64,000 nt of DNA from an uncultured Bdellovibrionales bacterium (GCA_964497185.1 CAZCBX010000006.1:49904-113903), one strand, 5' to 3'. Counted from the stretch's first letter, positions 1-14,915 are shown. The notes: generated by a model not told the origin, from the letters alone. Made by a program: numbers and translations.

Positions 1-624
1 CCGCAGGGTATTGAAAAACTTAGAACGCTGTCGTCGAGACGGGGTTAAGGCAGTTAACGCTGGGTTATTGCAAACGCGGCGATCCAAAAAGGCTTGCACG
101 TCGTCTACAGGCTCTGCCACAAACCCAAACAGATCTTCTTCCGGATGTTGTAACTGCTGATCTGGAAAAAGCTGTGCATATCGCGCATCGCTAACTTGAA
201 TGGGCACTGGCGACTGCGTCTCTCGGTTGTATTGGGGGACAAACTGCCCTTCAATGCCGGATTGCGGTTCTGGCTCCTGACCCAAAAATTTCTCGATAAA
301 AGAGGCATCCCCCATTCGCTCTTGTTGATCCTCAACTCTTTCTTGCAACTCAGCCAGCTGGCTGGACTGTGTTTGTTTTTGGTCAATGCAAGACACCAGA
401 CGATCGCCCAAAAATTGCTCTGCGCTGGTTAGATTGCTTTTGATGCCCTCATAGGAATGAAGAAAATCGTCATCTTGATACGTCCGCAGCTCTTTAATCC
501 ATGCGCTCTCTTGTTTTTTGGCTTTGGGGCGCTGTTTTTCATAGATTTCTTTGCCAGTGTAGCCCAGCGTTAAACCAATGCCCAAGCACACAAACGCTAA
601 TATGGTGGTCATCATATGCTTCAT
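1..624 (-). CDS. Hypothetical protein with N-terminal membrane anchor, truncated at the window edge
   Basis: Hand-translated open frame from ATG at 624 (MKHMMTTILAFVCLGIGLTLGYTGKEIYEK...) with no stop before position 1. Absent from the ORF track because it has no stop. Confidence 0.7.
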   Translation of the reverse strand, partial: MKHMMTTILAFVCLGIGLTLGYTGKEIYEKQRPKAKKQESAWIKELRTYQDDDFLHSYEGIKSNLTSAEQFLGDRLVSCIDQKQTQSSQLAELQERVEDQQERMGDASFIEKFLGQEPEPQSGIEGQFVPQYNRETQSPVPIQVSDARYAQLFPDQQLQHPEEDLFGFVAEPVDDVQAFLDRRVCNNPALTALTPSRRQRSKFFNTLR

Positions 625-721
625 GGATCACCATCTTATCAGAATCCCTCTGAAAAAGAATAAAAGTTAAGTGTCGACAAATCAATTCGATTTGATATAT
701 ACGGCACCTTGTTTGATATGT

Positions 722-806
722 GCCGACGTGGCGGAACTGGCAGACGCGCTTGGTTTAGGCCCAAGTGGGGTAACCCGTGGGGGTTCGACTCCCTCCGTCG
801 GTACCA
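722..806 (+). tRNA. tRNA-Leu (anticodon TAG)
   Basis: GCCGACG/CGTCGGT acceptor stem, CTTGG-TT-TAG-GC-CCAAG anticodon arm, long variable arm, GGTTCGACTCC T-arm, encoded CCA. Confidence 0.97.
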
Positions 807-1230
807 AACATCCTTTTTTTTGTTCCTGCTTAATTTTTTGATTCCTTGCTCTATGTGGCTCCTGACGAGAGTCGAACTTTGTTCGAGCTTTTGTTGGGTC
901 GCCTGCGGCTCCATGGCTCCGTCGGTACCAAACATCTTTTTTTTGTTCCTGCTTAGTTTTTTGATTCCTTGCTCTATGAGGCTCCTCGCGGGAGTCGAAC
1001 TTTGTTCGAGCTTTTGTTGGGTTTAGCAAATCTTAGGACGTCAGGCCTTAGATTTGCTTATGTCATGATTTGGTTTGAGCTTGCTCAAAGCATAATCTGA
1101 CCTCCTGCGGCTCCATGGCTCCGTCAATACCAAACATTCTTTTTTTTGTTTTTGCTTATGTCATGATTTGGTTTGAGCTTGCTCAAAGCATAATCTGACC
1201 TCCTTCGACTCCATGGCTCCGTCGGTGCCA
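807..1230 (+). repeat. tRNA-Leu-linked tandem repeat, three units (124, 202 and 98 nt), each ending in a copy of the tRNA 3' end
   Basis: ATGG+CTCCGTCGGTACCA-like copies end at 930, 1132 and 1230, each followed by AACAT and a T-tract. Units 1 and 2 are nearly identical apart from an insertion. Confidence 0.9.
1023..1101 (+). mobile_element. Two-hairpin mini-element, 79 nt (TTAG...GAC); partial second copy at 1154-1199
   Basis: Present in repeat unit 2 (GGGT|TTAG...GAC|CTcctgcgg) and absent from unit 1 (GGGT|CGcctgcgg). Same architecture at 7454, 13661 and 13690. Confidence 0.75.
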
Positions 1231-1386
1231 AACATTTTTTTTATTCCAGGGGCTTACCATTTTGGTTACTGGAATAAGTGAATCGAGGTATTTTTTGGGT
1301 TTGTAGGGCCGCAATCGGTCTTTTTGGGCTTGTAAATGGGCGCTAGGGGTGGACGTTTGGTTGGGTTTAGGGTAGAAGGCTTCGCT

Positions 1387-2649
1387 ATGAAAGTACAAGT
1401 AGATCACGTCAGCGACGTTAAGAAGAAAATTGTTGTCACCATTGATGAAGATCAGGTGCAGAGCCAAATGGATGAGGCTTATGTGGATCTTCAAAAAAAT
1501 GCGCAAATTCCTGGTTTTCGCAAAGGCAAAACGCCCAAATCACTTTTAGAGAAGAAGTATGGCCCTTCAGTTGAAGCTGAAGTTTTTCAAAACTTAATGC
1601 GCGCCACCATGAGCGAAGCTTTGGAAGAAAATGACTTAGACGCTATTTCCATTTCGGATGTAAGCCCGCCTGAAAGAAAAAAAGGCGAAGGTTTAACTTA
1701 CTCTGCATCACTAGAAGTTCGCCCCAACTTTGAACCCAAAGATTACAAAGGCATTTCTGTCAAACAGAACAAAGAAGACGTGAAAGACGAAGCCATTCAA
1801 GAAGTATTGGATCGCATTTTGGACAACCATGCCGTGATGAAACCCTTGGATGCAAAAAGCCCCAAAAAAGGCCAATATGCTTCCATTTTGGTTGAACATC
1901 TGGATGACCAAGGCAATGTGACCGAGACGCCCAAAGCTGAAGAACAGCTTCACATGGTTGGACACGAATCAGCCCGCAAAGATGTCGATCAAGCCATTCA
2001 AAAAATGTCTGTGGGCGATACCCAAGATTTAACCTTGGAGAATGTGCCTGGCCAAAAAGACGATCAAAAAACGTTTGTTCGGTTGACTTTAAAAAGCGTG
2101 AAAGAAAAACAATTGCCTGAACTTAACGATGACTTTGCCAAAACAGTGGGTCCTTTTGAAAATCTTGATGCGCTTAAAAAACAAATCAAAGAAGATCTTT
2201 CCTCTGAATTGGAAGATCGCAAAAAAGTAGATCATGCCACGCAAATTTTGGATCATTTGCGCAAAAAAAATAAAGTGGCCCTGCCCGACACCATGTTGGA
2301 GCAAGAAATGCAAAACATGCGACAAGAATTTTTCAACCGTGTGGTACAAAGCGGCCAAAGCCTGCCGGAAGATTTTTCTGCAGACAAGATGAACGAAGAA
2401 ATGAAACCCGAGGCTGAAAGGCGCGTGCATGAGCAGCTTCTGCTAACGGCCATTGCCAAAAAAGAAAACATTGAAGTCACGCCCCAAGAAATTCACGCAA
2501 AATTGCATGAGCTTTCACACATGTACAACAAGCCTGAAGGAGAGCTTCGTGCGGAGCTTGAAAAATCCGGACGAATGGACTTCTTGCATTATCAGCTTCT
2601 ATCGCAGAAAACGCTTGATTTCCTTGTTGGCGAAGCTAACATGAAGTGA
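1387..2649 (+). CDS. tig: Trigger factor
   Basis: Ribosome-binding signature IPGFRKGK; upstream of clpP-clpX. Start taken at MKVQVD (1387). Confidence 0.95.
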
Positions 2650-2695
2650 ATCTGGGCTTGACCCTATTGTCAGCACCATCATTAGAAAGGGTTTT

Positions 2696-3304
2696 ATGTC
2701 TTCATTGATTCCAATGGTCGTAGAACAAACGCATCGTGGCGAACGTTCATACGACATTTATAGCCGACTTTTAAAAGAACGAATTATTTTTTTGAGCACC
2801 CCTGTCAACGATGAAGTAGCCAATCTCATTGTGGCACAATTGTTGTTTTTAGAATCCGACAATCCTGACAAAGACATTCAATTGTACATCAATTCTCCAG
2901 GTGGCTCGGTCTATTCGGGTATGGCCATATACGATACCATTCAGCATATTAAACCTGAAGTCTCTACTTTTTGCATGGGCATGGCGGCGTCCATGGCGGC
3001 GGTGCTTTTGGCCGCAGGCCAAAAAGGCAAAAGATTTGCTCTGCCCCACTCTCGCGTGATGATTCACCAGCCTTTGGGGGGCTTTCAAGGCCAAGCCACA
3101 GACATTGATATTCAGGCCAAAGAAATTTTAAAAATCAGAGACGAACTCAACCAAGTTCTTCAGCGACATACCGGACAAAGTTTGGATAAAATTCAAGAGG
3201 ATACAGACCGCGACTATTATATGACCTCCGCAGAAGCCAAAGAGTATGGTATTATAGATCACGTAGTTGAAAAACGATCTGACATTGCGAGTGTAACTTC
3301 ATGA
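2696..3304 (+). CDS. clpP: ATP-dependent Clp protease proteolytic subunit
   Basis: [26 protein letters not shown] (catalytic Ser), MIHQP. Confidence 0.99.
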
Positions 3305-4566
3305 CCGAACAAAACAACGACCAAAACCAACTTCATTGTTCATTTTGTGGCAAAGGACAGCGAGAAGTCAAAAAGCTGATTGCTGGCCCCACGGTGTACA
3401 TTTGTGATGAGTGCATTGAACTTTGCAACGACATCATTGAAGAAGAAGGCCAAAACGAAGAAGCTGTAGGAACAGCGCCTTCGGCCATTCCAAAGCCCAA
3501 AGACATCAAAGCCATATTGGACGAATATGTCATTGGCCAAGAAGATGCCAAAAAAGTCCTTTCGGTTGCTGTTTATAATCACTACAAGCGCATTGACAGT
3601 CCTGTGGTTTCCAGCAGCGACATTGAGCTGCAAAAATCCAACATTTTGATGCTGGGCCCCACCGGTAGCGGTAAAACGTTGTTGGCTCAAACCCTTGCCC
3701 GCATTTTAAACGTGCCTTTTACCATCATTGATGCCACCACCTTAACCGAAGCCGGTTATGTGGGGGAAGATGTTGAAAACATCATTGTTACGCTTTTACA
3801 AAATGCAGATTACGATGTTGAACGCGCGCAGCGTGGCATTGCCTACATTGATGAAATCGACAAAATCGCACGCAAAGCCGATAACCCTTCGATTACCCGT
3901 GATGTATCGGGAGAAGGCGTGCAACAAGCACTGCTGAAAGTCATTGAGGGCACGGTTGCCAATGTACCGCCCAAAGGGGGACGCAAACACCCGCAACAAG
4001 AGTTTTTGCAAGTAGACACGAGCAACATGCTGTTTATTTGTGGTGGCGCGTTTGTCGGCTTGGACAAAGTCATTGAAAGACGCATCACGCAAACCAGCAT
4101 TGGTTTTGGTGCTGAGCTAAAATCCAGCAAACCCAAAGGCACGGGCGAACTCTTTCAAGAAGTAAAAAATGAAGATTTAACCAATTATGGTTTGATTCCT
4201 GAATTTATTGGTCGTGTGCCTGTGGTGGCATCGCTCAATGATTTGGACGAAAACGCACTGATTGATATTTTAACTCAGCCCAAAAACGCCTTAATCAAAC
4301 AATATCAAAAACTCTTTGATATGGAGAACGTCAAACTCACATTCACCCCGACGGCCATCTCCGCCATTGCGACCAAAACCATGGACCGCAAAGCCGGCGC
4401 ACGTGGTTTACGCTCTATTTTAGAAGAAATCATGCTGGATATTATGTATGAAATTCCTTCTCAAGAGCACGTGGAAGAGTGCGTCATTTCAGAAGACGTT
4501 GTATTAAAGGGCGATAAGCCTCTGGTTGTGTATCAACAGCCCAAAAAAGAAGCTGAAAGCGCTTAA
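3301..4566 (+). CDS. clpX: Clp protease ATP-binding subunit ClpX
   Basis: CSFCGK...CDEC zinc finger, GPTGSGKT Walker [18 protein letters not shown] loop. Confidence 0.99.
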
Positions 4567-4672
4567 GTCCAAATAAGTCGAAGCAAAGTTTTTTGAGTCT
4601 TGCTTTTTTTTGGTGTGTGCCTACATTGGTAGATATAGGAACTGATATCTGCCAAACAAGGACAAGACCTCA

Positions 4673-7123
4673 ATGACTGAAGACAAAAAACCACTTTCCA
4701 GCAATTTACCAGCCACAGTGACGCGGGTGCCATTACTGCCACTTCGCGATATTATCGTATTTCCACACATGGTGGTGCCATTGTATGTTGGCCGTGAAAA
4801 ATCGGTCAAAGCACTCGAATATGCCATGAAAAATGGCAAAGACCTTTTGCTGTCTGCACAGAAAAAAGCCAAAACCAATGACCCCCAAGAAGAAGATATT
4901 TATACGGTGGGTACATTGGGCAAGATTAAACATCTTTTGCGCTTGCCGGACTCCACCGTAAAAGTTCTGGTGGAAGGGAAAAAGCGAGTTAAAATCAAAC
5001 AATTTATTGAACACCAAGATTTCTTCTTTTGCGAAATCAAAGATTTGGTGGAGCCTGAAACCAAAGACGTAGAGCTTGAGGCAATGGTTCGACAAGTTCA
5101 AAAAAGTTTTGAAGCTTATGTAAAGCTCAATAAAAACATTCCCCCTGAAATGATTATGTCGGTTTCCAACATGGATGAGCCATCGCGTGTGATTGACACC
5201 ATTGCTGCGCACCTCACGTTGAAACTCAAAGACAAACAAGAGGTGCTTGAAATACCGGACGCGCATTCGCGCTTGGAAAAGCTGTATGCTCTGATGCAAT
5301 CTGAAATAGAAATTTTGCAGATTGAAAAACGCATTCGTTCGCGTGTTAAAAAGCAAATGGAGAAAACGCAAAAAGAGTATTATCTCAACGAGCAAATGGC
5401 GGCCATTCAGAAAGAGCTGGGTGAAAAAGAAGACGGTAAATCTGAAATCAATGAGATTGAAGACAATCTTAAAGAGAAAAAACTGCCTGTTGAAGCCAAA
5501 GAGCGCATTGAAAAAGAACTCAAAAAATTAAAAATGATGTCGCCCATGTCGGCGGAAGCCACGGTTGTGCGCAACTACATCGACAACATGATGGAACTGC
5601 CCTGGCTCGAATACAGCGAAGACAAACTCGACATTCCAGAAGCCGAAAAAGTGCTCGAACGTGATCACTATGGATTGGATAAAGCCAAGAAACGAATTTT
5701 GGAATACCTATCGGTTCAAAAACTGGTTAAAGGCATCAAGGGACCCATTCTTTGCTTGGTTGGGCCTCCGGGTGTGGGTAAAACCTCTTTGGCCCGTTCA
5801 ATTGCTGATTCAACGGGGCGTAAATTTGCCAAAATGTCCGTGGGGGGCATGCGGGACGAGGCTGAAATTCGCGGCCACCGACGCACCTACATTGGCGCCA
5901 TGCCTGGTAAAATTATTCAGGCCATTAAAAAAGCGGGCAAGTCCAATCCTGTTTTCTTGATTGATGAAATTGATAAAATGGCGATGGACTTCCGTGGGGA
6001 TCCCTCTGCGGCCATGCTTGAAGTATTGGATCCACAACAAAACCATAGTTTTGGCGATCACTACTTGGATGTAGATTACGACTTGTCCAAAATTATGTTT
6101 GTGGCCACGGCCAATTCCGTCAGCGGCATACCGCGCCCATTGCTGGATCGAATGGAAGTCATTCATCTGTCTGGGTATACCGAAGAGGAAAAACTTCAAA
6201 TTACCAACAAATATCTGATTCCCAATCAGGTCAAAGAAAATGGTTTAACCCCAGACAACATTACGTTCACCGATGCTGGCGTATTGGAAGTCATTCAAAG
6301 ATACACCCGCGAAGCGGGGGTTCGAAATCTTGAAAGAGAAATTTCCTCCATCTGTCGTAAGATTGCCAAAAAAGTAGTCGAGGAAGGAAGTGAGCACCAT
6401 TCAGAAATTACACCTGAACAAGTGCATGATTTGCTCGGCGTACCCAAATTTAAATACGGCATGGCTGAAAAAGAGAGCCAAATAGGCCTAACCAACGGGC
6501 TTGCCTGGACTGAAATGGGTGGAGACTTGTTGCAAATTGAAGTTTCTGTACTACCAGGCAAAGGCAAACTTAAACTTACGGGTAAACTGGGCGATGTGAT
6601 GCAAGAATCGGCACAAGCAGCCATGACCTACATTCGCTCGCGCTCGAAAGCCTTTGGTTTGCGCGATCATTTTTATGAAAAAATTGATTTTCACGTTCAT
6701 GCACCCGAAGGGGCCATTCCAAAAGATGGTCCATCGGCGGGCATCACCATTGCCACTTCGTTGGCCAGTGCCATCATGGGAATTCCCGTGCGCAGAGATG
6801 TTGCCATGACTGGCGAAATCACATTGCGTGGCAAAGTGTTGCCGATTGGCGGACTCAAAGAAAAAGTATTGGCGGCCCATCGTGGCGGCGTGACCGATAT
6901 CATCATTTCGGTGGATAATGAAAAGGACTTAAAAGATATTCCTGAAAACATTCGTGAGGAAATGACCTTTCACACCGTGGAAAACGCCGATGAGGTACTG
7001 AAAATCGCACTGGATTTGCAACCAGGCCAAAGCCTACTGGACAAAGAAGGCGATTTTGCCCTTGAAATCTTTGAAGCCGGTGCGGATGTACCCGGTGTCA
7101 AAGATGAAAAAGCCATGCATTAG
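4673..7123 (+). CDS. lon: Lon protease (endopeptidase La)
   Basis: LPLRD N-domain, GPPGVGKTS Walker A, PKDGPSAG catalytic Ser, IGGLKEK. Confidence 0.99.
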
Positions 7124-7190
7124 CCCTTTTGTAAAAAAAGGTTGACCCTACCCAGAGGGTATGAAATAAGACCCTCTATTGTCAAAGGAT

Positions 7191-7266
7191 GGGCGATTAG
7201 CTCAGCTGGCAGAGCGCCACATTTACACTGTGGATGTCGGCGGTTCGATCCCGTCATCGCCCACCA
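7191..7266 (+). tRNA. tRNA-Val (anticodon TAC)
   Basis: GGGCGAT/ATCGCCC acceptor stem, CCACA-TT-TAC-AC-TGTGG anticodon arm, GGTTCGATCC, CCA; 76 nt. Confidence 0.97.
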
Positions 7267-7580
7267 TCTCCTTATTCCTTGCTTGATTTGAAAGTTTCTT
7301 TGTACCCGCAACTACCAGCAGATCGAACCAAGGTTCTCTGTTGATTGGACTCGCCCTTCGGCGAGTATGGCGTCATCGCCCTCCATCTCTTTATTCCTTG
7401 CTTGATTTGAAAGTTTCTTTGTACCCGCAACTACCAGCGGATCGGCTAGGGTTTTAGTGGTTCTTATGACGTAGGAATTAGAACCACTTATGCCACATTT
7501 GGGCTTGAGCTGGCTCAAAGCAAATGTGGCCTCTGTTGATTTTATCAGCCCTTCGGCGGATATGGCGTCCTCGCTCTTCA
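7267..7580 (+). repeat. tRNA-Val-linked tandem repeat, two units (119 and 195 nt)
   Basis: ATGG+CGTCATCGCCCTCCA ends at 7385 and a degenerate ATGG+CGTCCTCGCTCTTCA ends at 7580. The first roughly 50 nt of both units are nearly identical. Confidence 0.9.
7454..7530 (+). mobile_element. Two-hairpin mini-element, 77 nt (TTAG...GGC)
   Basis: Filled site GGTT|TTAG...GGC|CTCTGTTGATT in unit 2 versus empty site GGTT|CTCTGTTGATT in unit 1 (7332-7346). Confidence 0.8.
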
Positions 7581-7704
7581 TTTTGAGGGGGTTTTACCTA
7601 ATTTTTTAGAATCCATTGAGTGCGTATGGTAAAATAGTAGAGATATTCAGTATTTATCCTAAATATTTGAAAATCGTTGGTTGTATTTACTCATGGGTTG
7701 TTGC

Positions 7705-10458
7705 ATGTTGTATCGAGGTTGTATTTTTGTTGTGTGGCTTTGCTGTTGCTTTTTATGGCAGTGCAATGCAGGCACCCCTACGTCTAAACTTGTTTTTAAG
7801 CCTTCTCCACAAAACCCAGCCAGCACTTTTACTCTCATTCAACCTTCATCTACCCATGCCAAAGATGAACGCATCCTTCTTCGCATTGAAAATTTGTCTC
7901 CCGAGAACAAAGCCACTTTGCATGATGATCCTGCTTGTCAAAACGCACTGCCTCATTTAGCCGATGCGTCGTCTCGTGCCCATGCTGTCGATTTTTCCAT
8001 CGACTTAGAGCAAGACGGTGTTTACACCTACTATGCGCAAGTTGGTTCACCTGAAAGTAATCATCCGCTTTGTTTGGGACCGGTAAGCTATCGTTTGGAC
8101 CGCATTGCGCCCGTCATCACCGATGTCTCGGATGGGTCTGGGTCTTACATTGCGTTATCTACCAGCGAGTCCGATAATCCAGTGTATGTGTATGATGATG
8201 ACGCCTGCACAAATGAAGTGGGCGAGCTATTACCCGATGGCAATGGCAACGACATTGTGTTTGCACCAGGCCTGACGGAAAATGGCGTGTTTTTATATTG
8301 GGTGCAAACGCAGGACAATGCCGGCAACTTATCCGATTGTGTGGGTCCGCTTTTTTATATGTATTTGGGTGCTTCGCCCAACTCCATGATTTCGATGCCC
8401 AATCAATTGGCCATCAACACGGGCACCCTCGAATACAATGTTGATTTTGGTGATGTATTTTCGGCTTCAATGGCTGCCAGCGATGTCACCGTGCAAACCA
8501 CCGGTGACGTGCAATACAGTGTGCAAGTGTTAAACGGCACAACCAAAACACCCACCATTGTGTTAACGGTCACTGGCGGCAATGGCACCATCAACAGCGT
8601 GAGCATTCCAGAGGGCTTGGGTGACAACCTTGTGGCAGGCACACCGGCCGCCACTCAAAATACCGTGGTTCGTGTGGACAACATTGCACCCAACGTCACT
8701 TTGTCTTTGTCACCATCCACACCTTCCCCGGGTGATTTTAATCCCATTTTGTTTGATATAACGGCAACCACGCCCACTGATTTGGCCTCGGTCGCCCTGT
8801 TTAAAAATGACCCCACTTGTTCGAGTCCTGCAGCCAATACTGGTGGCCACCCTGCACAAACGTCACTGAGTCTTGCATCCGACACCATTGAAACCGGTAC
8901 AGGCACTTATCTATACTATCTGCAAGCCATCGATGCGGCAGGCAATGCATCCGGATGCGTCGGCCCGGTCAGCTATCAGCTCAGTGCGCCAGATCCGGTG
9001 AGCAATCTCAACATTTCTGCCAAAGGTTGTGATTACTTATCCATTGGTTGGACCAAGCCCAACGAAAACGGCACCACCATTGTCAATTATCAAACCCGTT
9101 ACAAACCTTCGGCGCTCCTGGATGAAAGCAATTTTGTTTTATTTGACCCAGGCATCTCTACACAAACCTTTGAAACCATTGGACCCGCTGCGCCCCACAC
9201 GCTAACCGTTGATACCGTCTACGATTTTCAAATGCGAACCGTCACCAGCAACGGGGCCATATCGCCTTGGTCCAATACCTATACAGGCGCAACCTTGCCC
9301 AACACCCTATTTTTCTGTGGGAATGACAATTACGGCGCATTTAACACAGGGGGTGCCACCACCAGCAAAATGGTTGCATTTGATGACGGAACCACCGTAG
9401 AGCATTACAATCAAAGCAATTTATTGATTAATACCTACACGCTTGACGCGGGTGAAACACAAGGCATCAACAGCACGCAGTTCGATTATGTTTTATCGGA
9501 CAAACCATTGTACATTGCGGGTCGAAGAGGCAGTGGGGGCAATACACGCAAAGCAAACGTGGTTTGGAGTTCCAAAGACTGGGCGGGCAAACAGTTTTTA
9601 TTCAATGGATCGCGCGCGCCCAATCACATTTTAAGCGTTTACGCATTTGAAGATGCCACCATTGATGTCATCAATGCCAGTGGGGTTGTGGTTACGCAGA
9701 CCATCAATGCTGGCCAAAGCACCACGTTTAGTGTGGGCAATGGCAGTTATGAGGTCGACAGTACAGGCACGTTGGTTGCCTATCTGTTTTCGAGCAGTGG
9801 CAATCCCATGGGCAACAACCTGCAAGACCCAATGCCTTTACTGCCACTGTCCACCGATATCATTGGTTACACCGGCAGCATCAGCGGTGCCCAAATTTCT
9901 TCTTTAAGCAATGGCAATGTCGTCAACGCAAGGCATTCCAACGATGTGCTTGATACCCGAACTGTCAACATCGGCAACCCCCAATCCATTTCAGCCCGAG
10001 GTAACGGCAACGTGACACTTTACCAATCAGAGGCTGTGCATGTGACCTCTTCAGCCCCCATCGTTGCCCGTAGTAATGCGGACAGCAATGGCAACTGTTC
10101 GGCGCCTTTTCTTCCAGTTACCATGATGCGCAAGCGATACGCCATCAATGTCTATGCTGAGTGGGTGGCCTTTGCCGCATTGGAAAGTGGCGATATTGAA
10201 GTGGTGGATCCACAAACAGGTTCCGTGGTGGCCACCATCACCCTGGTCCAAAATGATCCAACTCCACCTACAGCCTCCACCACCCCTTGGAAAGCACGAA
10301 TCGATCGCTCCACGCTGTTAAACTTGGTCAGTAGCAACTCAACGACTGAAGGGGTTATCTTTCGATCGACCATTGCCTTTGCGGCTTGGTATGAACCTCA
10401 AAATGACAACTTCGCAGCTGACGACGATGAAACATTGCTTTATGGTACCAATGATTAA
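7705..10458 (+). CDS. Large secreted/surface protein with repeated Ig-like modules, a fibronectin type III domain and a beta-rich C-terminal region
   Basis: Hydrophobic Cys-ending N-terminus; three modules ending G.Y.Y..Q..D.AGN...C.GP..Y; FN3-like PDPVSNL...IGWTKP..NGTTIVNYQTRY. Start chosen at ATG 7705 (the ORF track starts at TTG 7681). Confidence 0.75.
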   Translation: MLYRGCIFVVWLCCCFLWQCNAGTPTSKLVFKPSPQNPASTFTLIQPSSTHAKDERILLRIENLSPENKATLHDDPACQNALPHLADASSRAHAVDFSIDLEQDGVYTYYAQVGSPESNHPLCLGPVSYRLDRIAPVITDVSDGSGSYIALSTSESDNPVYVYDDDACTNEVGELLPDGNGNDIVFAPGLTENGVFLYWVQTQDNAGNLSDCVGPLFYMYLGASPNSMISMPNQLAINTGTLEYNVDFGDVFSASMAASDVTVQTTGDVQYSVQVLNGTTKTPTIVLTVTGGNGTINSVSIPEGLGDNLVAGTPAATQNTVVRVDNIAPNVTLSLSPSTPSPGDFNPILFDITATTPTDLASVALFKNDPTCSSPAANTGGHPAQTSLSLASDTIETGTGTYLYYLQAIDAAGNASGCVGPVSYQLSAPDPVSNLNISAKGCDYLSIGWTKPNENGTTIVNYQTRYKPSALLDESNFVLFDPGISTQTFETIGPAAPHTLTVDTVYDFQMRTVTSNGAISPWSNTYTGATLPNTLFFCGNDNYGAFNTGGATTSKMVAFDDGTTVEHYNQSNLLINTYTLDAGETQGINSTQFDYVLSDKPLYIAGRRGSGGNTRKANVVWSSKDWAGKQFLFNGSRAPNHILSVYAFEDATIDVINASGVVVTQTINAGQSTTFSVGNGSYEVDSTGTLVAYLFSSSGNPMGNNLQDPMPLLPLSTDIIGYTGSISGAQISSLSNGNVVNARHSNDVLDTRTVNIGNPQSISARGNGNVTLYQSEAVHVTSSAPIVARSNADSNGNCSAPFLPVTMMRKRYAINVYAEWVAFAALESGDIEVVDPQTGSVVATITLVQNDPTPPTASTTPWKARIDRSTLLNLVSSNSTTEGVIFRSTIAFAAWYEPQNDNFAADDDETLLYGTND

Positions 10459-11327
10459 TGATTTTGTTTAAACTGCTGAATGCTTTCTGCCACTTGCGCG
10501 CCAAATAAAACAACAATGGAATTGTAGTACATCCACAATAATAAAATGACTAGATTTCCTGCCGTTCCATACAGCGATGCCCATTTGCTCTGCGTTAGAT
10601 AGCTTAACAAAACATTCTTACCCACGGAAAAAAGAAACGAAGAAACCAATGCGCCTATGATCAGATTTCTTTTTTTCATCTCACGCGCACCCAATAACTT
10701 ATAAAGTACAAAGAAAAGTCCAGCATTGATGCCGTAAGACAGCAGGAAGCTAATCATTTGATTCATCCATTCTGCTGCCAGCAGTGCTTCGGCTTGTTCT
10801 TCAATCATAAAGTGAAAAATCAAATCAATTAAAATGGCCACCAATACGATAAACCCAATCACAAACACCATAATAAAAGACACCAGCACATCCCATATCT
10901 TTTGCCTCTTTTGAAGATTGTCTTCCATAAAGGTAAAAATATCGCGAAAAGCCGTTTGCAAGGCTGAAAAAATGGCGTTGGAAGCCCATAAAAGCAACAA
11001 AATACCTGTAATGCTCGCCACCAGTCCTGATTCTGAGCGGCGCGCACTGGATGCGGATTCTTTCAGTACTTTCACCAGGTCTTCATTGAGGTATTGCCCA
11101 ATAAAATTAAACAGGGAATCACTGGCCAGGTGCATATCCACCACCAAGCTGGCAATGAAAATAGAAATGAGCAATACGGGCGGCACCGAAAAAATCGTAT
11201 AAAATGAAACAGCTGCTGCATGATGAACAATACGGTTATCAAAAATACCTTTGCCCATGTCCATCAACAAATTTTTGGTTGCTTTGAGCATGCTACACCA
11301 GCTTATATCAGTCTTTACGATATGCAA
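10455..11327 (-). CDS. YihY/virulence factor BrkB family membrane protein
   Basis: AAAVSFYTIFS.PP and SLYGTAGNLVILLLWMYYNS.VVLFGA motifs; multiple TM segments. True start may be 11291. Confidence 0.9.
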   Translation of the reverse strand: MHIVKTDISWCSMLKATKNLLMDMGKGIFDNRIVHHAAAVSFYTIFSVPPVLLISIFIASLVVDMHLASDSLFNFIGQYLNEDLVKVLKESASSARRSESGLVASITGILLLLWASNAIFSALQTAFRDIFTFMEDNLQKRQKIWDVLVSFIMVFVIGFIVLVAILIDLIFHFMIEEQAEALLAAEWMNQMISFLLSYGINAGLFFVLYKLLGAREMKKRNLIIGALVSSFLFSVGKNVLLSYLTQSKWASLYGTAGNLVILLLWMYYNSIVVLFGAQVAESIQQFKQNH

Positions 11328-11335
11328 AATCGTAC

Positions 11336-12733
11336 TTAGGATAGTTCTTGTACACTAGTTTCAAAGCGGGCTTGAATGTAGGGCTTAACAATTGGACTGG
11401 TTTTGATTTTCGCCCCCAGGGTATAGAGCAAATTGTACAAACCAATTTCAGCTCGCATAATGTAAGTCAACTCGGGCCAAAGGATTTTTGCCTTTGCAGA
11501 CGCTTGAAAAAGCCGCTTAAATTCGTTTAAAATCATACCATCTGAAAAATCGACCACTTGATCTACTTGGGTATCCCAACGAGGATAAATTTGGGCGTAC
11601 AATCTTGAAAAACCTCGATGAACTTCTAGCTGAGCTTCTGTGAGCTCATTAACTGAAAATTTCCGATGAACCTTTTCCACCATGGCTTTGTACTGACGCT
11701 GATCCTGATCCAAATCCAGCGTTAAAGATGAAACAAAAGCGTCAATCATGTCGCTGGGCACGGCTTTGACGCATCCAAAATCAACCAAGCCAATTGATCC
11801 ATCTGGATCAAAAAGATAATTGCCCAAATGTGGATCGGCGTGCAAATAGCCAATGCGATGGATTTGATGGTGATACATGTTCATTAATTGACGGGCCAAT
11901 CGATTGCGAAAAGCTTGAGATTTTTCTTTTTCCAATATTTTTTCTAAACTCATACCGGGCACAACACTCATGGTCAGCACCTTAGCGTTTGAAAATTCTG
12001 GATGGACTTTGGGCAATGCAACGCCTTCAAAATTTTCAAAACCCTTGGCAAAAATGGAAATATTCTTTGCTTCGTGCAGGTAATCTGTCTCCTCTAGTAA
12101 CCCGCGCTTAAGTTCATCGAATGCAGCTTGATGGTAATGTTTGGTCCACATCATCGGTTTGAAGGTGGTGCGAATCACTTGCAAATCATGCTCGATGGTT
12201 TTGGCAATGTTGGGGTATTGCAACTTCACCACCACTGGGGTGCCATCCTTAAGTTTTGCATGGTGTACCTGCCCCATGGAAGCTGAGGCAAACGCTTGAG
12301 CATCAAATTCGCCAAACACTTTCTCTGGCATGACACCAAATACTTTTTTAAACTGCAACCTGGCCATGGTCGGATTCATGCTGGGGGCATGCATTTGTAA
12401 CGTGCTTAGCTCCGTCAAAGCTTGCTCAGGCAGCCATTGGCCCTGCATACTCATCATCTGGCCCAGTTTCATCCAAGGCCCTTTTAAGCCTTTAAGAGCC
12501 TGTGTGGCTTTAACAGCCTGGTCACTCACCTTTTGGTCTGCCAGTTTCGCTGCTTGGTCTTGCTCTAAAAACGCCTTTTGAATTTGATACCCAATGTAAC
12601 TATTGGAAATACCCAATCCCACTTTGGCCATGGTCCACGCGCGTTTGATTTGCCCTTGTGTAAAATCAAAGTCTTCTTCCTCCGTACTTGCGGCATCAGA
12701 ATCATGCTGATCATCCGCGCTTACCATGTCCAT
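11336..12733 (-). CDS. ABC1/AarF/UbiB family atypical kinase
   Basis: [38 protein letters not shown]. Likely start MDMVS overlaps the TetR stop. Confidence 0.93.
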
Positions 12734-13368
12734 GGGCTTTTGTTTAAAAAAGCAAACCCCATGGTTAGCGAACGATCCAACATGGCCATGGTTTTTTGCT
12801 TGTCTTCGGAAGTATCTTTGAGCCAGTAATACAAAATACCATAATAGTAGGTTGCAAACATGTAAGCACCCCAATCACCCAGGGGAGGAATTTCTCCATT
12901 TTCATGGGCTTTCACGAACAATTCTTTGATAAATTGAAGGTACCGACTGGTGTGAACTTGGGTGTCTAATTTAAGCGGATTGAGTTTGGATCGAGGATCC
13001 AACGCTTTGATAAATGCCGCATGAATAAAATCTTCGTAGGGTGACAGCTGTTCAAGTTGCATATGAATCAGACCAAAAAGTTTTTCGTTGAGTGGGGCTT
13101 TTTGCAACGTTTTATCTTTTTGATACTGCGACATAACTTGCTCAATTTCTTTTTCATAGAAATACAGCGCCAAGTCTTCTTTGGTGGCAAAATAATTGTA
13201 AATGGTGCCTTCAGCCACGCCAGCTTGAGCGGCCAGTTCTTTTGTGGTGGTTTGCGCAAAGCCCTTTTTTTGAAACAACGTCAGCGCAGCTTGCAAAATT
13301 TTGTCTTTCACAACTTGCTTTTTGGTTTCTCGAACCCGAGAAGCGGACTTTTTCTTTGTTTTTGGCAT
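12721..13368 (-). CDS. TetR/AcrR family transcriptional regulator
   Basis: [43 protein letters not shown] helix-turn-helix. Confidence 0.93.
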
Positions 13369-13445
13369 GAGTATACTCATTATTATCAGATCCCCTTGCG
13401 GGTGTAAATCTGCGACTTTCTTGAAAAAAGGCGTAAAAAACCTGT

Positions 13446-13473
13446 TTGACTCCCCTTCGGAATGTGGTAGAAC
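13446..13473 (+). promoter_or_regulatory. Putative sigma70-type promoter of tRNA-Asp
   Basis: TTGACT-16 nt-TAGAAC with an upstream TG, ending 16 nt before the tRNA. Confidence 0.45.
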
Positions 13474-13489
13474 CAACTTTCAAAATTTA

Positions 13490-13566
13490 GGGGTCGTAGT
13501 TCAGTTGGTTAGAACGCCTGCCTGTCACGCAGGAGGTCGCGGGTTCGAGTCCCGTCGGCCCCGCCA
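13490..13566 (+). tRNA. tRNA-Asp (anticodon GTC)
   Basis: GGGGTCG/CGGCCCC acceptor stem, CCTGC-CT-GTC-AC-GCAGG anticodon arm, GGTTCGAGTCC, GCCA. Confidence 0.98.
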
Positions 13567-13660
13567 CTGTCTTCTTTTGGAGATGGTTGCTTCTCTTTAT
13601 CTTTATTCTATATTATTGCACGTGCTGGGGACTCGAACAGAGTTCGTCTATTTACTGGGT

Positions 13661-13806
13661 TTAGTGGTTCTTGTGACGTTAGGAACTAGGCCAGTTTCGC
13701 GCACACTCCTTGAGCACGAAACTTGGCATAAGCCGCGTTACTAAAGCAACGGCTAAAACCACTTATGTCATAATTTTTTTTCAGCTATGCTGAAGGGAAA
13801 TTTGAC
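13661..13806 (+). mobile_element. Two-hairpin mini-element (79 nt once the nested copy is removed)
   Basis: GGGT|TTAGTGGTTCT..GACGTTAGG..AG[nested]AACCACTTATGTCA...TGAC|CT; hairpin 1 is nearly the same as in the Val copy. Confidence 0.75.
13690..13756 (-). mobile_element. Nested inverted mini-element copy, 67 nt
   Basis: Reverse complement reads GGTT|TTAGCCG...CGGCTTATGCCAAGTTTCG...CGAAACTGGC|CT. Removing it restores the host stem arm AGAACCAC. Confidence 0.75.
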
Positions 13807-13922
13807 CTCCTTACGGCTCCATGGCGTCGGCTTTTTCTTTTTTTACTTTAGGTTTAGCATGTGAAATTTTGTTTTTTTCCAAGCAGGTGGGGACATGTGC
13901 CTTTCGTACAGGGCCCGCGGTT

Positions 13923-14915
13923 TTAGGATTGGATGGATTGGAGGAGTTTTAGGAGGGCTTTTTCTTCTTTGTTGGTGAAGTTGTCCTGATCGATTTCTTT
14001 GAGGACTTCTTCAATGTAGTTTTGAAGCGTGACACCCGCCTCGTATTGTTGAACCACACGGGGGTCGATGTAGTTGGCTTTGGCCACGGCTTCGGTGTTG
14101 CCCAAGTGCTGTGCAACTTGATTGATGGCTTCTTTGATTTTTGTTTTTTGTTCTTTTTGGCTTTCCACCACGCCCATTTCATTTAATAACGTTGCTGCCA
14201 AAAAAGTACCGGCCCAGGTTCGAAAGTCTTTAGCGGAGTACTCCTCACCCATGACTTCATGAATGTACCGATTAAGATCGTCAGACTTTACATCTACTTT
14301 TTGTCCTTCTGAATCAAAGTATTTGAAAATTTCATAGCCGGGCACTTCATCAATTTCTCTGACGATTTCTGCCAGTCTTCGGTCTTTGATCTTTTTGGTG
14401 TGGGTCTTTCCTGATTTGCCCTTATAGCTAAAAGTAAGTTTATGGCCCTGCACATCCAAATGCTTAGACCTTAGTGTGGTTAGCCCGTAGGTTTGATTCT
14501 GGCTGGTATAGTAATCGCTGCCTGGTCGAAAGTAAGCATTTTCCATCAAGCGCACCATGCACGCCATAACTTTATCACGATTGAGATTGGGTTGCGCCAA
14601 ATGCTGGCCGGTCACTTGTCGCATATGAGAAAGGCGAGAAGCAAAGTCGATGATTCGCGCAAACTTTTTCTTTTCCTGTTTTTCGCGCCATTTGGGGTTG
14701 TATATGTACTGCTTGCGCCCTTTGACATCCCGTCCCCAAGCAAAAACTTTTGCCCGCGGCTGCTGTGCAAAAATATGAACATCCGTCCACGCTGGCGGAA
14801 TGGCCAAACTTTGAATCCACGACTTGAGTTTTTTGGACACAATGGTTTTACGGGTTTGCGCATCCAGGTACCGAAAGCCCTGTCCCCACTTTTTTCGCTC
14901 GATGGTTTGGCCCAT
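13923..14915 (-). CDS. DNA topoisomerase IB (bacterial, poxvirus-like)
   Basis: IPPAWTDV, GRDVKGRKQYIY, FRPGS, YGLTTL, FSYKGKSG, SAKDFRTW, LGNTEAVAKANYIDP (catalytic Tyr). Confidence 0.95.
   Translation of the reverse strand: MGQTIERKKWGQGFRYLDAQTRKTIVSKKLKSWIQSLAIPPAWTDVHIFAQQPRAKVFAWGRDVKGRKQYIYNPKWREKQEKKKFARIIDFASRLSHMRQVTGQHLAQPNLNRDKVMACMVRLMENAYFRPGSDYYTSQNQTYGLTTLRSKHLDVQGHKLTFSYKGKSGKTHTKKIKDRRLAEIVREIDEVPGYEIFKYFDSEGQKVDVKSDDLNRYIHEVMGEEYSAKDFRTWAGTFLAATLLNEMGVVESQKEQKTKIKEAINQVAQHLGNTEAVAKANYIDPRVVQQYEAGVTLQNYIEEVLKEIDQDNFTNKEEKALLKLLQSIQS

Follow-up and report, generated by a model that had tools for sequence, protein, structure and literature searches.

Short two-hairpin DNA elements at tRNA T-loop sequences in the genome of an uncultured Bdellovibrionales bacterium

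Introduction

Classical REPs start with a GTAG head, and in tRNA genes the attachment sites of integrases have a T-loop sublocation. PATEs, which are terminal-only derivatives of the IS200/IS605 type, are described in PMC3119063 as transposase-free and lacking inverted terminal repeats, with near-terminal palindromes, a targeting word of 4-6 nt at one side, forms of 52 bp and divergent sequences, and as mobile elements that nest. The same paper describes SMR-A of Haloquadratum as ~80-110 bp long, leaving no target duplication, strongly preferring the palindromes of other mobile elements as landing sites and having a mobilisation mechanism that is unknown. Casposases, according to PMC9939771, integrate at tRNA 3' ends with a T-loop palindrome as 'leader' and with duplications of 14-15 bp, and the integration is often tandem.

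Here we analyze a stretch of 64,000 nt (positions 1-64,000, called the window), in which two-hairpin sequences follow tRNA-Leu, tRNA-Val and tRNA-Asp. All of the traits listed for PATEs (freedom from transposase, palindromes, targeting word, shortness, divergence and nesting) hold for these elements, which have a hairpin near each end and no inverted terminal repeats, and which are inserted 3' of a short word without duplication. They differ from PATEs in that the hairpin foot is at the first base instead of tens of bases inward, the right end falls inside the hairpin 2 stem, a tRNA T-loop word serves as target and the copies are confined to tRNA gene trailers; nor does this genome (G000, assembly 96.8% complete) have an IS200-type TnpA/TnpB with matching ends. 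The elements resemble SMR-A in size, in the absence of target duplication and in landing inside palindromes of other elements, but SMRs have inverted terminal repeats, occur in another domain of life and use another target.

Results and Discussion

Two-hairpin copies in the window

The window was scanned with a covariance model derived from the copies (CM R1), which scored 63.7 bits at 1023-1101 (+), 59.2 bits at 7454-7530 (+), 51.2 bits at 13690-13756 (-) and 41.7 bits at 13729-13806 (+), the last being the right part of an interrupted copy at 13661-13806. All four copies listed in the initial annotation were recovered, together with a hairpin-2-only remnant of an A-type element at 1145..1199 (+, 28.4 bits) that was absent from the earlier list, and the phenomenon is larger than was noted then. 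Members of the family are 67-85 nt long and have the order TTAG, hairpin 1, CTTATG, hairpin 2. By sequence reading, folding and the model, A-type elements of 79 nt (1023..1101, +) and 77 nt (7454..7530, +) have the junctions GGGT/TTAG..GAC/CTCC and GGTT/TTAG..GGC/CTCT, respectively. The A-type element at 13661..13806 (+; junctions GGGT/TTAG..GAC/CTCC, model) is split into the halves 13661-13689 and 13757-13806 by a short B-type element of 67 nt (13690..13756, -; fold and model). The latter sits at GTGGTT^CTAG within hairpin 1 of its host, and its minus-strand junctions at 13756/13690, read directly from the sequence, are GGTT/TTAG..GGC/CTAG. When window positions 1-14500 were compared with Rfam, only tRNA scored above the gathering score and two other rows were far below their thresholds; the elements were unmatched, in line with the initial annotation, which did not recognise a named family.

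Folding of the three intact window copies as single-stranded DNA gave z values of -6.3, -7.1 and -3.9 against shuffles. Each copy forms two separate hairpins, one near each end, and the 5' and 3' ends are unpaired with each other. In 20 of the 25 copies it was the top strand that folded better. Top-strand folds contained 35 G.T pairs among 700, bottom-strand folds 9 among 652. The stems had been described as differing in sequence yet staying paired, which covariation supports: in a MAFFT alignment of 23 copies 79.9% of cells were paired, compared to 69.2% in shuffles, with double changes in 12 of 21 pairs and a covariation score of 0.287 against 0.121 that was reached by none of 500 shuffles (slid controls, 0.06-0.14). 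An alignment of 38 copies fitted by the model, and hence leaning towards structure, gave 84.1% against 68.0%, double changes in 18 of 21 pairs and a score of 0.382 against 0.133.

Ends and target site

Throughout the genome the model found 32 matches at E<=1 and 29 at E<=1e-4, and 25 of the 28 tabulated copies are <=330 nt from a tRNA or tmRNA gene. The further copies share these precise ends. The first four bases are TTAG in 25 of 26, the flanking bases are T at -1 (25/25), G at -3 (20/25) and C at +1 (23/25), and the element closes with GAC (12), GGT (9) or GGC (5). No target duplication was seen in any copy, and the flanks rejoin to a tRNA T-arm without a repeated base. These data bear out the initial annotation in its reading of a discrete mini-element with exact ends that is inserted 3' of GG(G/T)T without target duplication.

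The preferred site, GGTT^C(G/A)A.TCC, is tRNA T-loop DNA, with insertion between positions 55 and 56, and a secondary site, GGGT^C(T/G)CC, lies in a second repeat. In copies co-oriented with the tRNA, the element is preceded by 3-7 nt that match the 5' T-stem strand followed by TT, and the 21 nt behind it reproduce the cognate tRNA between T-loop position 3 and CCA, with 21/21 identity in two Pro(ggg) cases and at Ala, His and Thr(cgt); similarity 3' of the element can extend beyond CCA into the trailer. Since the flanks on both sides match the tRNA T-arm, the uninterrupted tRNA gene represents the empty site. Relative to the nearest tRNA gene 15 copies have the same and 10 the opposite orientation, a split that argues against a role in a tRNA read-through transcript, and in the 10 antisense copies the T-loop sequence past the element is only 8-11 nt long. 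All of the 18 GTTCRANTCC sites distant from tRNA genes are unoccupied, showing that the ten-base word by itself does not attract insertion. Both the T-loop target and the existence of units repeating the cognate tRNA 3' end lay outside the earlier reading.

Units trailing the tRNA genes

The T-loop copies hit by the elements are found in units of 100-250 nt situated 3' of tRNA and tmRNA genes, which close with a copy of the cognate tRNA 3' end of 14 or ~21 nt. Similarly built units occur at about 20 different tRNA genes, and a downstream copy of the gene's own 3' end was found for 17 of 34 tRNA/tmRNA genes, the exact repeats being 14 nt or 19-22 nt including CCA. Those of 14 nt belong to Phe, Leu(tag) and Gly(gcc), and the units are tandem.

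Behind the intact tRNA-Leu(tag) (722..806, +), whose 3' end recurs at the close of every downstream unit, the array has three units and not four as counted initially. Unit alignment identified Leu unit 1 (807..930, +) as a skeleton composed of an inverted T-loop copy, GGGAGTCGAAC, then GTTCG, TTGTTGGGT^CGCC (unoccupied at 899/900) and CCATGG, followed by 14 nt copied from the tRNA 3' end. Leu unit 2 (931..1132, +) has the same skeleton plus the A-type element, a clean indel of 79 nt between GGGT and C(G/T)CC. Leu unit 3 (1133..1230, +) is a deletion derivative in which the unit start (..TTTGCTTA) is fused to TG and hairpin 2 of the element, with TGCTTA microhomology. Correspondingly, the intact tRNA-Val(tac) (7191..7266, +) is followed by Val unit 1 (7267..7385, +), with the empty site GGTT^CTCTG at 7335/7336, and by Val unit 2 (7386..7581, +), which by alignment equals unit 1 plus the A-type element, a clean indel of 77 nt between GGTT and CTCTG. 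The Asp unit (13567..13826, +), downstream of the intact tRNA-Asp(gtc) (13490..13566, +), consists of the inverted T-loop copy GGGGACTCGAAC, the skeleton, the nested element pair, CCATGG and a short copy of the tRNA 3' strand (CGTCGGC). The minus-strand GTT^CGAGTCC site in GGGGACTCGAAC is unoccupied, and inverted T-loop sites were found empty in other units as well. The Leu, Val and Asp tandem units themselves belong to the phenomenon, which the initial annotation had likewise overlooked.

Evidence for insertion rather than deletion

The empty paralogous sites claimed previously for Val and Leu were confirmed by these alignments, and other evidence has the same direction. Nesting is reciprocal, with B-type in A-type at window position 13690-13756 and A-type one base inside B-type at C4:55277-55355. 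Copies at C7:11253 and C7:11454 share 97% identity with the one at C7:9951, but identity falls to ~50% in the 40-nt flanks. The element keeps its exact ends in five or more unrelated flank contexts whose only common feature is T^C, i.e. the T-loop, GGGT^CTCC, GGTT^CTAG in hairpin 1, ATCT^CTCGG, and GTTT^GAG in a B-type copy. Identity among most copies is only 60-89%, which indicates that most events are old.

A model search of 17 genomes of the phylum revealed 1 to 6 copies in each of four related genomes; the element recurs in the same context in G001, G002, G004 and G006, and the tRNA genes concerned differ between genomes that belong to different families. Partial tRNA copies in G008 have other two-hairpin sequences directly after GGTT. 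The congeners G002 and G004 differ at tRNA-Arg(tct), where G002 has a complete unit, element included, that G004 lacks; the difference is a ~290-nt block that begins just past CCA. In G006 the spacers ahead of the element in the Asp and Trp units share blocks. Together, the shared spacers and the whole-unit indel indicate that some of the spread took place at the level of the unit and not of the element. Taken together, the filled and empty paralogous sites, the reciprocal nesting, the 97% pair with unrelated flanks and the unit indel between congeners point to insertion, not deletion.

Search for the moving enzyme

The view that the element is non-autonomous was upheld, as none of the copies is protein-coding and an autonomous one is missing from the contigs; separate models of the left and right ends gave no gene-spanning pairs in the 96.8% complete assembly. 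The assignment to HUH transposition found no confirmation. The genome has four Y1_Tnp ORFs, RAYT-like open frames of 212-243 aa, each bracketed by its own, different hairpins, and no match to CM R1 was found beside any of them. Y1 genes are also present in G003 and G005, both of which are without element copies. The likeness to REP/REPIN systems lies in the conserved four-base head (TTAG here) directly followed by an imperfect hairpin, in the covarying stems, in the RAYT-like Y1 genes and in hairpin-1-like tandem arrays off tRNA genes in metagenome contigs (L078). However, the repeats of the hairpin types that flank the RAYT-like genes, which represent the true REPs of this genome, are dispersed over the contigs and not tRNA-linked, whereas the element is a fixed direct-order pair of two different hairpins with defined ends, and its closeness to tRNA genes differs from the genome-wide intergenic dispersal of REPs.

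Concerning other enzymes, the TnpB/Cas12 TNB domain (PF07282) had 0 matches in G000, G001, G002, G004, G006 and G010, and neither a reverse transcriptase nor an IS91-type Y2 enzyme was found. Cas1 (PF01867) was absent from G000 and its family, and within the order it matched only G006 and G014 of 15 genomes; the tyrosine recombinases of G000 are only two, both Xer-sized. A mini-element of IS110/IS1111 was rejected because no DEDD transposase co-occurs on the same site: IS110 is absent in the element carriers G002 and G004, and the single IS110-family gene type of G006 is placed in a REP-like site. A MITE of a DDE transposon was likewise rejected, as the copies have neither terminal inverted repeats nor target-site duplication. 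The circle junctions proposed initially were searched for over the window in four metagenome contig sets, and no circle or excision joint was seen in these contigs, which cannot show rare forms.

Origin of the copies

Our results are best explained, with a probability of roughly 0.55, if the copies constitute a new non-autonomous, T-loop-specific family of mobile DNA elements of the single-strand type, moved by an enzyme in trans. The data above demonstrate the family itself, with its ends, target, structure and insertion polarity, and its occurrence in relatives. The element is inserted as a unit between T and C, without target duplication, and probably in single-stranded form through an enzyme provided in trans, like IS200/IS605 or REP elements. 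Such single-strand chemistry would fit the conserved strand-specific fold, the lack of inverted terminal repeats and of duplication, and the short 5' target word.

It is conceivable, although we consider it rather unlikely, that the whole unit is mobile, i.e. that the spacer and the two-hairpin segment between direct repeats of the tRNA 3' end make up a small integrative element at tRNA 3' ends. The target would then be duplicated (14 or ~21 bp, casposase-like) or the tRNA end carried along (as in an integrase-borne island), and the two-hairpin segment would be a terminal recognition module and not an independent transposon. The frequent 3' end copies, the tandem units, the ~290-nt Arg(tct) block and the common Asp and Trp spacer blocks of G006 speak for this, as does the reappearance of the first 35-55 nt of the spacer after the last CCA at Ala, Arg(tct), Met and Cys. 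Location at tRNA 3' ends, 14-nt direct repeats, a T-loop palindrome just upstream and tandem arrangement are all reminiscent of casposons (PMC9939771), but the units here are 100-250 nt without genes, a second unit type has ~21-nt repeats, Cas1 is lacking and no terminal inverted repeats were visible at the unit ends by eye. Partial 3' tRNA copies from the T-arm, downstream of an intact gene, also resemble integrase attachment sites, and the partial copy 2.8 kb downstream of tRNA-Trp, at C3:178095, is a classical integration-type arrangement in this genome; here, however, two Xer-sized recombinases contrast with similar units at about 20 tRNA genes, and the partial copies are interrupted inside the would-be crossover region. 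What argues against mobility of the unit as the explanation is that the two-hairpin segment alone is the indel between otherwise identical units, that it nests in other copies, and that it occupies the opposite strand in inverted T-loop copies with no tRNA 3' end after it. Movement of the unit and of the element can both be true, at different levels.

Less probable again is a scenario with no dedicated enzyme, where one ancient insertion multiplied through tandem duplication, template switching or gene conversion involving the many T-loop-bearing repeats, the junctions being fixed by short shared T-loop words. The identical spacers of the tandem units at Cys, Gly and Val, the 119-nt Val unit 1 missing from one metagenome contig, and the deletion at TGCTTA in Leu unit 3 are consistent with such events. 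The copy in Cys unit 2 is nearer to the Gly copies 1.3 kb off (97%) than to its tandem neighbour (91%), which could reflect conversion, and the inverted T-stem copies that flank junctions resemble template-switch products. Nevertheless, this scenario would have to produce the constant exact ends in contexts sharing only T^C, on both strands, and next to different tRNA genes when genomes from separate families are compared.

Cas12k, which homes to tRNA genes, uses a GTN/GGTT motif, and the guides of TnpB are the flank past the right end. A comparable arrangement, with the hairpins as scaffold, the next ~21 nt (tRNA 3' end) as guide and GGTT as adjacent motif, as in TnpB omega-RNAs or Cas12k homing guides, would agree with GGTT directly 5' of the site, the exactly 21 target-identical nt after hairpin 2 in type II units and the strand-specific, covarying fold, but is very improbable given the absence of the TNB domain from the six genomes searched, the antisense copies with their 8-11 nt, the similarity that can continue through CCA into the trailer, and the match that such a guide would have to the intact tRNA gene of the cell itself.

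For a T-loop-specific mobile element moved in trans, the explanation we favour, the strongly preferred landing site is tRNA T-loop DNA, with GGGT^C(T/G)CC as a secondary one. Insertion into a functional tRNA gene would destroy it, and copies are therefore seen only in spare T-loop sequences, which the units trailing tRNA and tmRNA genes provide in the form of partial 3' tRNA copies and inverted T-loop copies.

Copies, ends and fold of the element

The four copies in the window that were described in the initial annotation, with the layout TTAG-hairpin 1-CTTATG-hairpin 2, were all recovered with R1, a covariance model built from an alignment of 23 copies. They lie inside repeated units trailing three plus-strand tRNA genes, Leu(tag) (722-806), Val(tac) (7191-7266) and Asp(gtc) (13490-13566). 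R1 matched 1023-1101 on the plus strand (junctions, marked by slashes, GGGT/TTAG..GAC/CTCC), 7454-7530 on the plus strand (GGTT/TTAG..GGC/CTCT), 13690-13756 on the minus strand (GGTT/TTAG..GGC/CTAG) and 13729-13806 on the plus strand, the last being the right portion of a split plus-strand copy at 13661-13806 (GGGT/TTAG..GAC/CTCC). A further plus-strand match at 1145-1199 is a remnant with hairpin 2 only. Downstream of tRNA-Leu there are plus-strand ORFs of 437, 202, 421 and 816 aa (1336-7123); judged by its first residues the 437-aa ORF reads as trigger factor, and by order and size the following ORFs may be its usual partners ClpP, ClpX and Lon. We looked for an orthologous empty Leu site, and in none of the five relatives examined does tRNA-Leu lie upstream of tig.

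The genome-wide search suggested in the initial annotation was carried out by iterated nhmmer and then R1 on the source assembly (2.14 Mb, 30 contigs, here C1, C2 and so on, with the window at C6:49904-113903; 96.8% complete), and yielded 29 copies at E<=1e-4 and 32 at E<=1. The ends of the 25-26 full copies were set by the closing pair of hairpin 2. TTAG is the start in 25/26, the exception being a copy with A-type DNA inserted one base inside. On the 5' side, T occupies position -1 in 25/25 and G position -3 in 20/25; on the 3' side, C occupies position +1 in 23/25. The copies end in GAC (12), GGT (9) or GGC (5). No base is repeated at the junctions of the full copies, so the precise ends and the lack of target duplication proposed from the window hold across the genome.

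Two sub-types were distinguished by hairpin 1. In type A its loop is GACG(G)TAGGA, and in type B the hairpin is GCCGTGCT..AGCACGCGGC, often with the loop GCGAAGC, an exceptionally stable DNA mini-hairpin; a short B form lacks the inner portion of hairpin 1. Folded as ssDNA, the three intact window copies were more stable than their shuffles (z = -6.3, -7.1 and -3.9). The covariation score of the MAFFT alignment (23 copies) was 0.287 as compared to 0.121 when shuffled (0/500 shuffles reached it) and 0.06-0.14 when the pairing was slid, with double changes in 12/21 stem pairs. For 38 copies aligned to the model, an alignment biased towards the structure, the values were 0.382 vs. 0.133, with double changes in 18/21 pairs. 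In 20/25 copies the top strand gives the more stable fold, with a mean gain of 1.2 kcal/mol (Wilcoxon p = 0.0006, not a true probability as the copies are related), and G.T pairs make up 35/700 of the pairs in top-strand folds vs. 9/652 in bottom-strand folds. Relative to the nearest tRNA gene 15 copies have the same and 10 the opposite orientation, a split that is hard to reconcile with a role in the tRNA read-through transcript. The one Rfam family matched was tRNA, the element itself having no Rfam match, and promoter and terminator scans gave no excess over shuffles and were uninformative.

Insertion rather than deletion

The short units could in principle have lost a segment of a longer ancestor. 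Five agreeing lines of sequence comparison instead support that the copies arose by insertion, in agreement with the mobile element proposed in the initial annotation. First, paralogous units are filled or empty within the same array: the Val units differ by 77 nt between GGTT and CTCTG and the Leu units by 79 nt between GGGT and C(G/T)CC, each a clean indel in the tandem-unit alignment, as expected from the empty sites that had been pointed out there. True deletion is seen in the third of the three Leu units, a derivative retaining hairpin 2 alone. Second, nesting occurs in both directions, with B inside hairpin 1 of A in the window (GTGGTT^CTAG) and A one base inside B at C4:55277-55355. Third, identical ends are found in at least five flank contexts with only T^C in common. 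Fourth, a tRNA-Cys unit contains a copy (C7:9951) with 97% identity to two copies in tRNA-Gly units, C7:11253 and C7:11454, both in opposite orientation to the tRNA-Gly gene. The flanks are ~50% identical, and the Cys copy is closer to the Gly copies than to its own tandem neighbour (91%). Fifth, at tRNA-Arg(tct) a ~290-nt block with unit and element is present in the congener G002, and in the congener G004 the end of the neighbouring gene follows after ~8 nt.

The T-loop as target

From the flanking sequences the preferred site is GGTT^C(G/A)A.TCC, which is the DNA of the tRNA T-loop, with the insertion point between positions 55 and 56. The intact tRNA gene itself represents the empty site. 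At Pro(ggg) (two copies), Ala, His and Thr(cgt) the 3' flank of the element is identical to the cognate tRNA over 21/21 nt, and by eye the same is seen for the Cys copy; the 5' flank matches the T-stem over 3-7 nt. Of 28 tabulated copies 25 have a tRNA or tmRNA gene no further than 330 nt away. One of the remaining three, C1:294969, has the 3' end of tRNA-Ser(gga) behind it, the gene itself lying at a contig edge. In the same region, C1:294960-295518 at the contig end, there are at least four tandem ~130-nt units, each with an uninterrupted GGTTCGAATCCCCCTC. These units probably trail the tRNA-Ser(gga) gene at the edge of contig C20, and arrays of this kind seem to break the assembly.

Units behind tRNA genes

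We inspected 420 nt downstream of every tRNA gene in the source genome. By a ten-base criterion 17/34 tRNA/tmRNA genes have one to three trailing units, each closed by a copy of the gene's own 3' end, and Ser-tga, Pro-tgg and Asp, beyond these 17, have shorter copies visible by eye. Units of type II consist of a spacer of ~60-70 nt, (T-stem 5' strand)GGTT, the element and the 21 nt from T-loop position 3 to CCA. Units with the type I skeleton, found downstream of at least 12 tRNA genes, open with a ~60-nt spacer, after which come the cognate T-loop in inverted copy (GGGAGTCGAAC for Leu) and 3 nt. GTTC(G/A)-TCTGTTTATTGGG then leads into a hairpin that is variable and covarying, (C)CATGG and finally 14 nt copied from the cognate 3' end. 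Examples are window 807-1230, 7267-7581 and 13567-13826, and C1:122400-122690, C7:11200-11600 and C12:28742-29220. B-type copies enter type I units on the minus strand at GTT^CGAATCC, which is the T-loop word (8-11 nt match), and A-type copies on the plus strand at GGGT^C(T/G)CC or, in Val, at the skeleton's own GGTT^C. Several type I units have kept the inverted T-loop uninterrupted, and short inverted T-stem copies lie immediately left of many junctions.

At Ala, Arg(tct), Met and Cys, and at Arg(tct) of G002, the start of the spacer is found again behind the last CCA. Such a recurrence would be expected if a composite of tRNA 3' end, trailer and element entered the T-loop of an intact gene and thereby restored the gene; plain tandem duplication would account for it equally well. 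In a metagenome contig (run X2, depth 8) position 7271 of the window is joined to 7391, so that one 119-nt Val unit is missing, which reflects either population variation in unit number or assembly collapse. With their tandem arrays and their exact repeats, which begin at a constant T-arm position and reach CCA, the units resemble casposase integration as described in PMC9939771, but they differ in that Cas1 is absent from the source genome.

Other structures occur in the source genome. A third insert type, 'E', is found in T-loop copies as GGTTCGA/CGAC-hairpin-AATAAAAAG-hairpin-..GCGAG-hairpin/AAATCC.., followed by the cognate tRNA 3' end, at tRNA-Gln (C3:82360-82560), tRNA-Met (C4:67415-68050) and the second tRNA-Cys unit (C7:10031-10150). 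The layout is mirrored at tRNA-Arg(cct) (C13:4100-4700): upstream of this gene is a block that contains a D-type copy and is bounded by a 16-nt copy of the tRNA 5' end (GCTCCTGTAGTTCAAC), breaking in the D-loop. At tRNA-Trp (C3:175326-178130) there is a classical island-like insertion of ~2.8 kb AT-rich DNA, followed by a copy of at least 36 nt of the tRNA 3' part with the T-loop intact; no integrase family match was found within it. Hairpins with the conserved loop ATGGCTCGCTTCGCTGCGCTTTATT have stems that are wholly different between copies yet paired. The loop core gave eight matches (C4:13611, C4:55881, C4:67792, C15:5533, C15:5813, C1:256561, C11:77476 and C21:5310), and the loop may be either an element landing in existing hairpin loops or one that duplicates its flanks in inverted order.

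Relatives and public collections

R1 matched 5/17 genomes of the phylum at E<=1e-4 (the source genome, G001, G002, G004 and G006) and 0/24 genomes from elsewhere in the domain. The context in the relatives is an intact tRNA gene, a spacer, ..GGTT, the element and a tRNA 3'-end copy, at Arg(tct), His, Glu, Pro(ggg), Asp, Trp and Ala; one copy in G006 has T-arm-like flanks and no tRNA gene within 3 kb. Although R1 has no match in G008, partial 3' copies accompany 5/32 tRNA genes there, four with other two-hairpin inserts directly after GGTT and one (tRNA-Glu) with the type I skeleton. The phenomenon is therefore wider than this element family.

Public collections were scanned with the exact B-type left-end pattern. 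Among 12 genome-contig stretches with the pattern there was one true copy (59.4 bits; the others <=23.3 bits), in L040, a MAG of a Bdellovibrionales bacterium, beside tRNA-His and tRNA-Arg. None of three viral stretches was true, one of them (L050) being coding-like sequence with no tRNA. Of 20 metagenome stretches two, L073 and L078, look related and are away from tRNA genes. In L078, from another organism, four tandem 52-nt hairpin-1-like units (TAGCCGTTCTGCGAGGGAAGAGAGCTAGAACGCGGCTTATGCGCGGAGGGCG) follow a 930-aa ORF (10669-10970), an array whose sequence suggests that hairpin 1 may be a REP-like module of wider distribution. In open full text (titles and abstract starts, among the matches listed) we found no title that concerns the T-loop of bacterial tRNA gene copies as a site of hairpin elements or IS insertions.

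Search for the mobilising enzyme

The initial annotation had proposed an HUH-type enzyme, to be sought, along with RAYT, IS91 or IS110, as a gene bracketed by the element's ends. No gene bracketed in this way was found. Four Y1_Tnp (RAYT-like) ORFs are present in the source genome (C7:112567-113244, C2:164914-165579, C18:15920-16525 and C14:4264-4509), each bracketed by its own hairpins, which are unlike the element, and with no R1 match beside any of them. Repeats of these REP types are dispersed over the contigs (half-site matches: GGGGACAGACACC type 27, CGTCCCC..GGGAC type 33). Y1 genes also occur in the copy-free G003 and G005, and the Y1 proteins of G002 and G006 form their own clade (36% identity), neither orthologous nor close to any Y1 of the source genome. 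A regular expression for the HUH motif hit 38/1861 ORFs, which by their first residues appear to be housekeeping-like or the known Y1 genes.

An autonomous copy was sought with left-end and right-end models, which gave no pair separated by a gene in the 96.8% complete assembly. PF07282 (TnpB/Cas12 TNB), PF00078 (reverse transcriptase), PF04986 (IS91 Y2) and PF01867 (Cas1) had no match in the source genome, and it has two tyrosine recombinases only. Mimicry of Xer/dif was rejected: CATAA-N6-TTATG was present at two sites, both counted once per strand, and neither is element-like. IS110 was rejected as well, being absent from the copy-bearing G002 and G004 and located in a REP-like site in G006. 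The sole IS110-family transposase gene of the source genome (C16:20177-21450) is ~230 nt downstream of a tRNA-Met gene. Excision joints and the circle junctions predicted in the initial annotation were not seen in contigs of four runs from one microbial-mat sample, material that is blind to rare forms.

Possible mode of insertion

Taken together, our results define a discrete element of 67-85 nt whose two-hairpin fold is conserved and strand-specific. The element inserts at T^C without duplication, strongly prefers the T-loop word and survives only where that word is dispensable. By analogy, an HUH-type reading is plausible: the element would be inserted as single-stranded DNA by a trans-acting enzyme, like the IS200/IS605-derived PATEs and REPs. 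The chemistry of IS608 is the background to this single-strand analogy. Among the PATE features given in PMC3119063, the one that defines the family, a cognate transposase, was not found for the element, and we therefore regard it as working like a PATE rather than as a PATE.

A bolder and, in our judgement, unlikely reading is that T-loop DNA (GGTT^C, 55/56) would serve in this small phylum as a dedicated landing site for several unrelated-looking two-hairpin families, with insertion mechanistically coupled to a gene-sparing duplication of the tRNA 3' end. The enzyme would be of a kind not yet linked to transposition, and none of the known Y1, TnpB, Cas1, IS110, IS91, reverse transcriptase or integrase candidates. 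In such a coupled duplication the T-arm could act as a surrogate left end, the composite of tRNA 3' end, trailer and element moving into the T-loop of the intact gene.

Implications

What is new and interesting is the T-loop specificity together with the tRNA-end units. tRNA genes are classic integration sites, used by integrases and casposases that act on double-stranded DNA with their own enzyme. Here, in contrast, tiny gene-less hairpin elements have as their base-precise target the 11 bases that are most conserved among all tRNA genes. Their survival is limited to spare T-loop copies, and about half of the tRNA genes of one genome bear such copies, in a build that is regular and modular. 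The covariance model can flag regions that are otherwise called pseudo-tRNAs or left blank in annotation, and the position of several copies at contig ends warns that assemblies of genomes like this one can be interrupted at repeats next to tRNA genes. For biochemistry the system offers a defined, cargo-free substrate of 80 nt and an 11-nt target. If the chemistry is single-stranded (HUH-like), this would be a clean natural case in which a universal structured DNA motif determines the choice of target; otherwise, a site-specific activity of a new sort would be there to be discovered.
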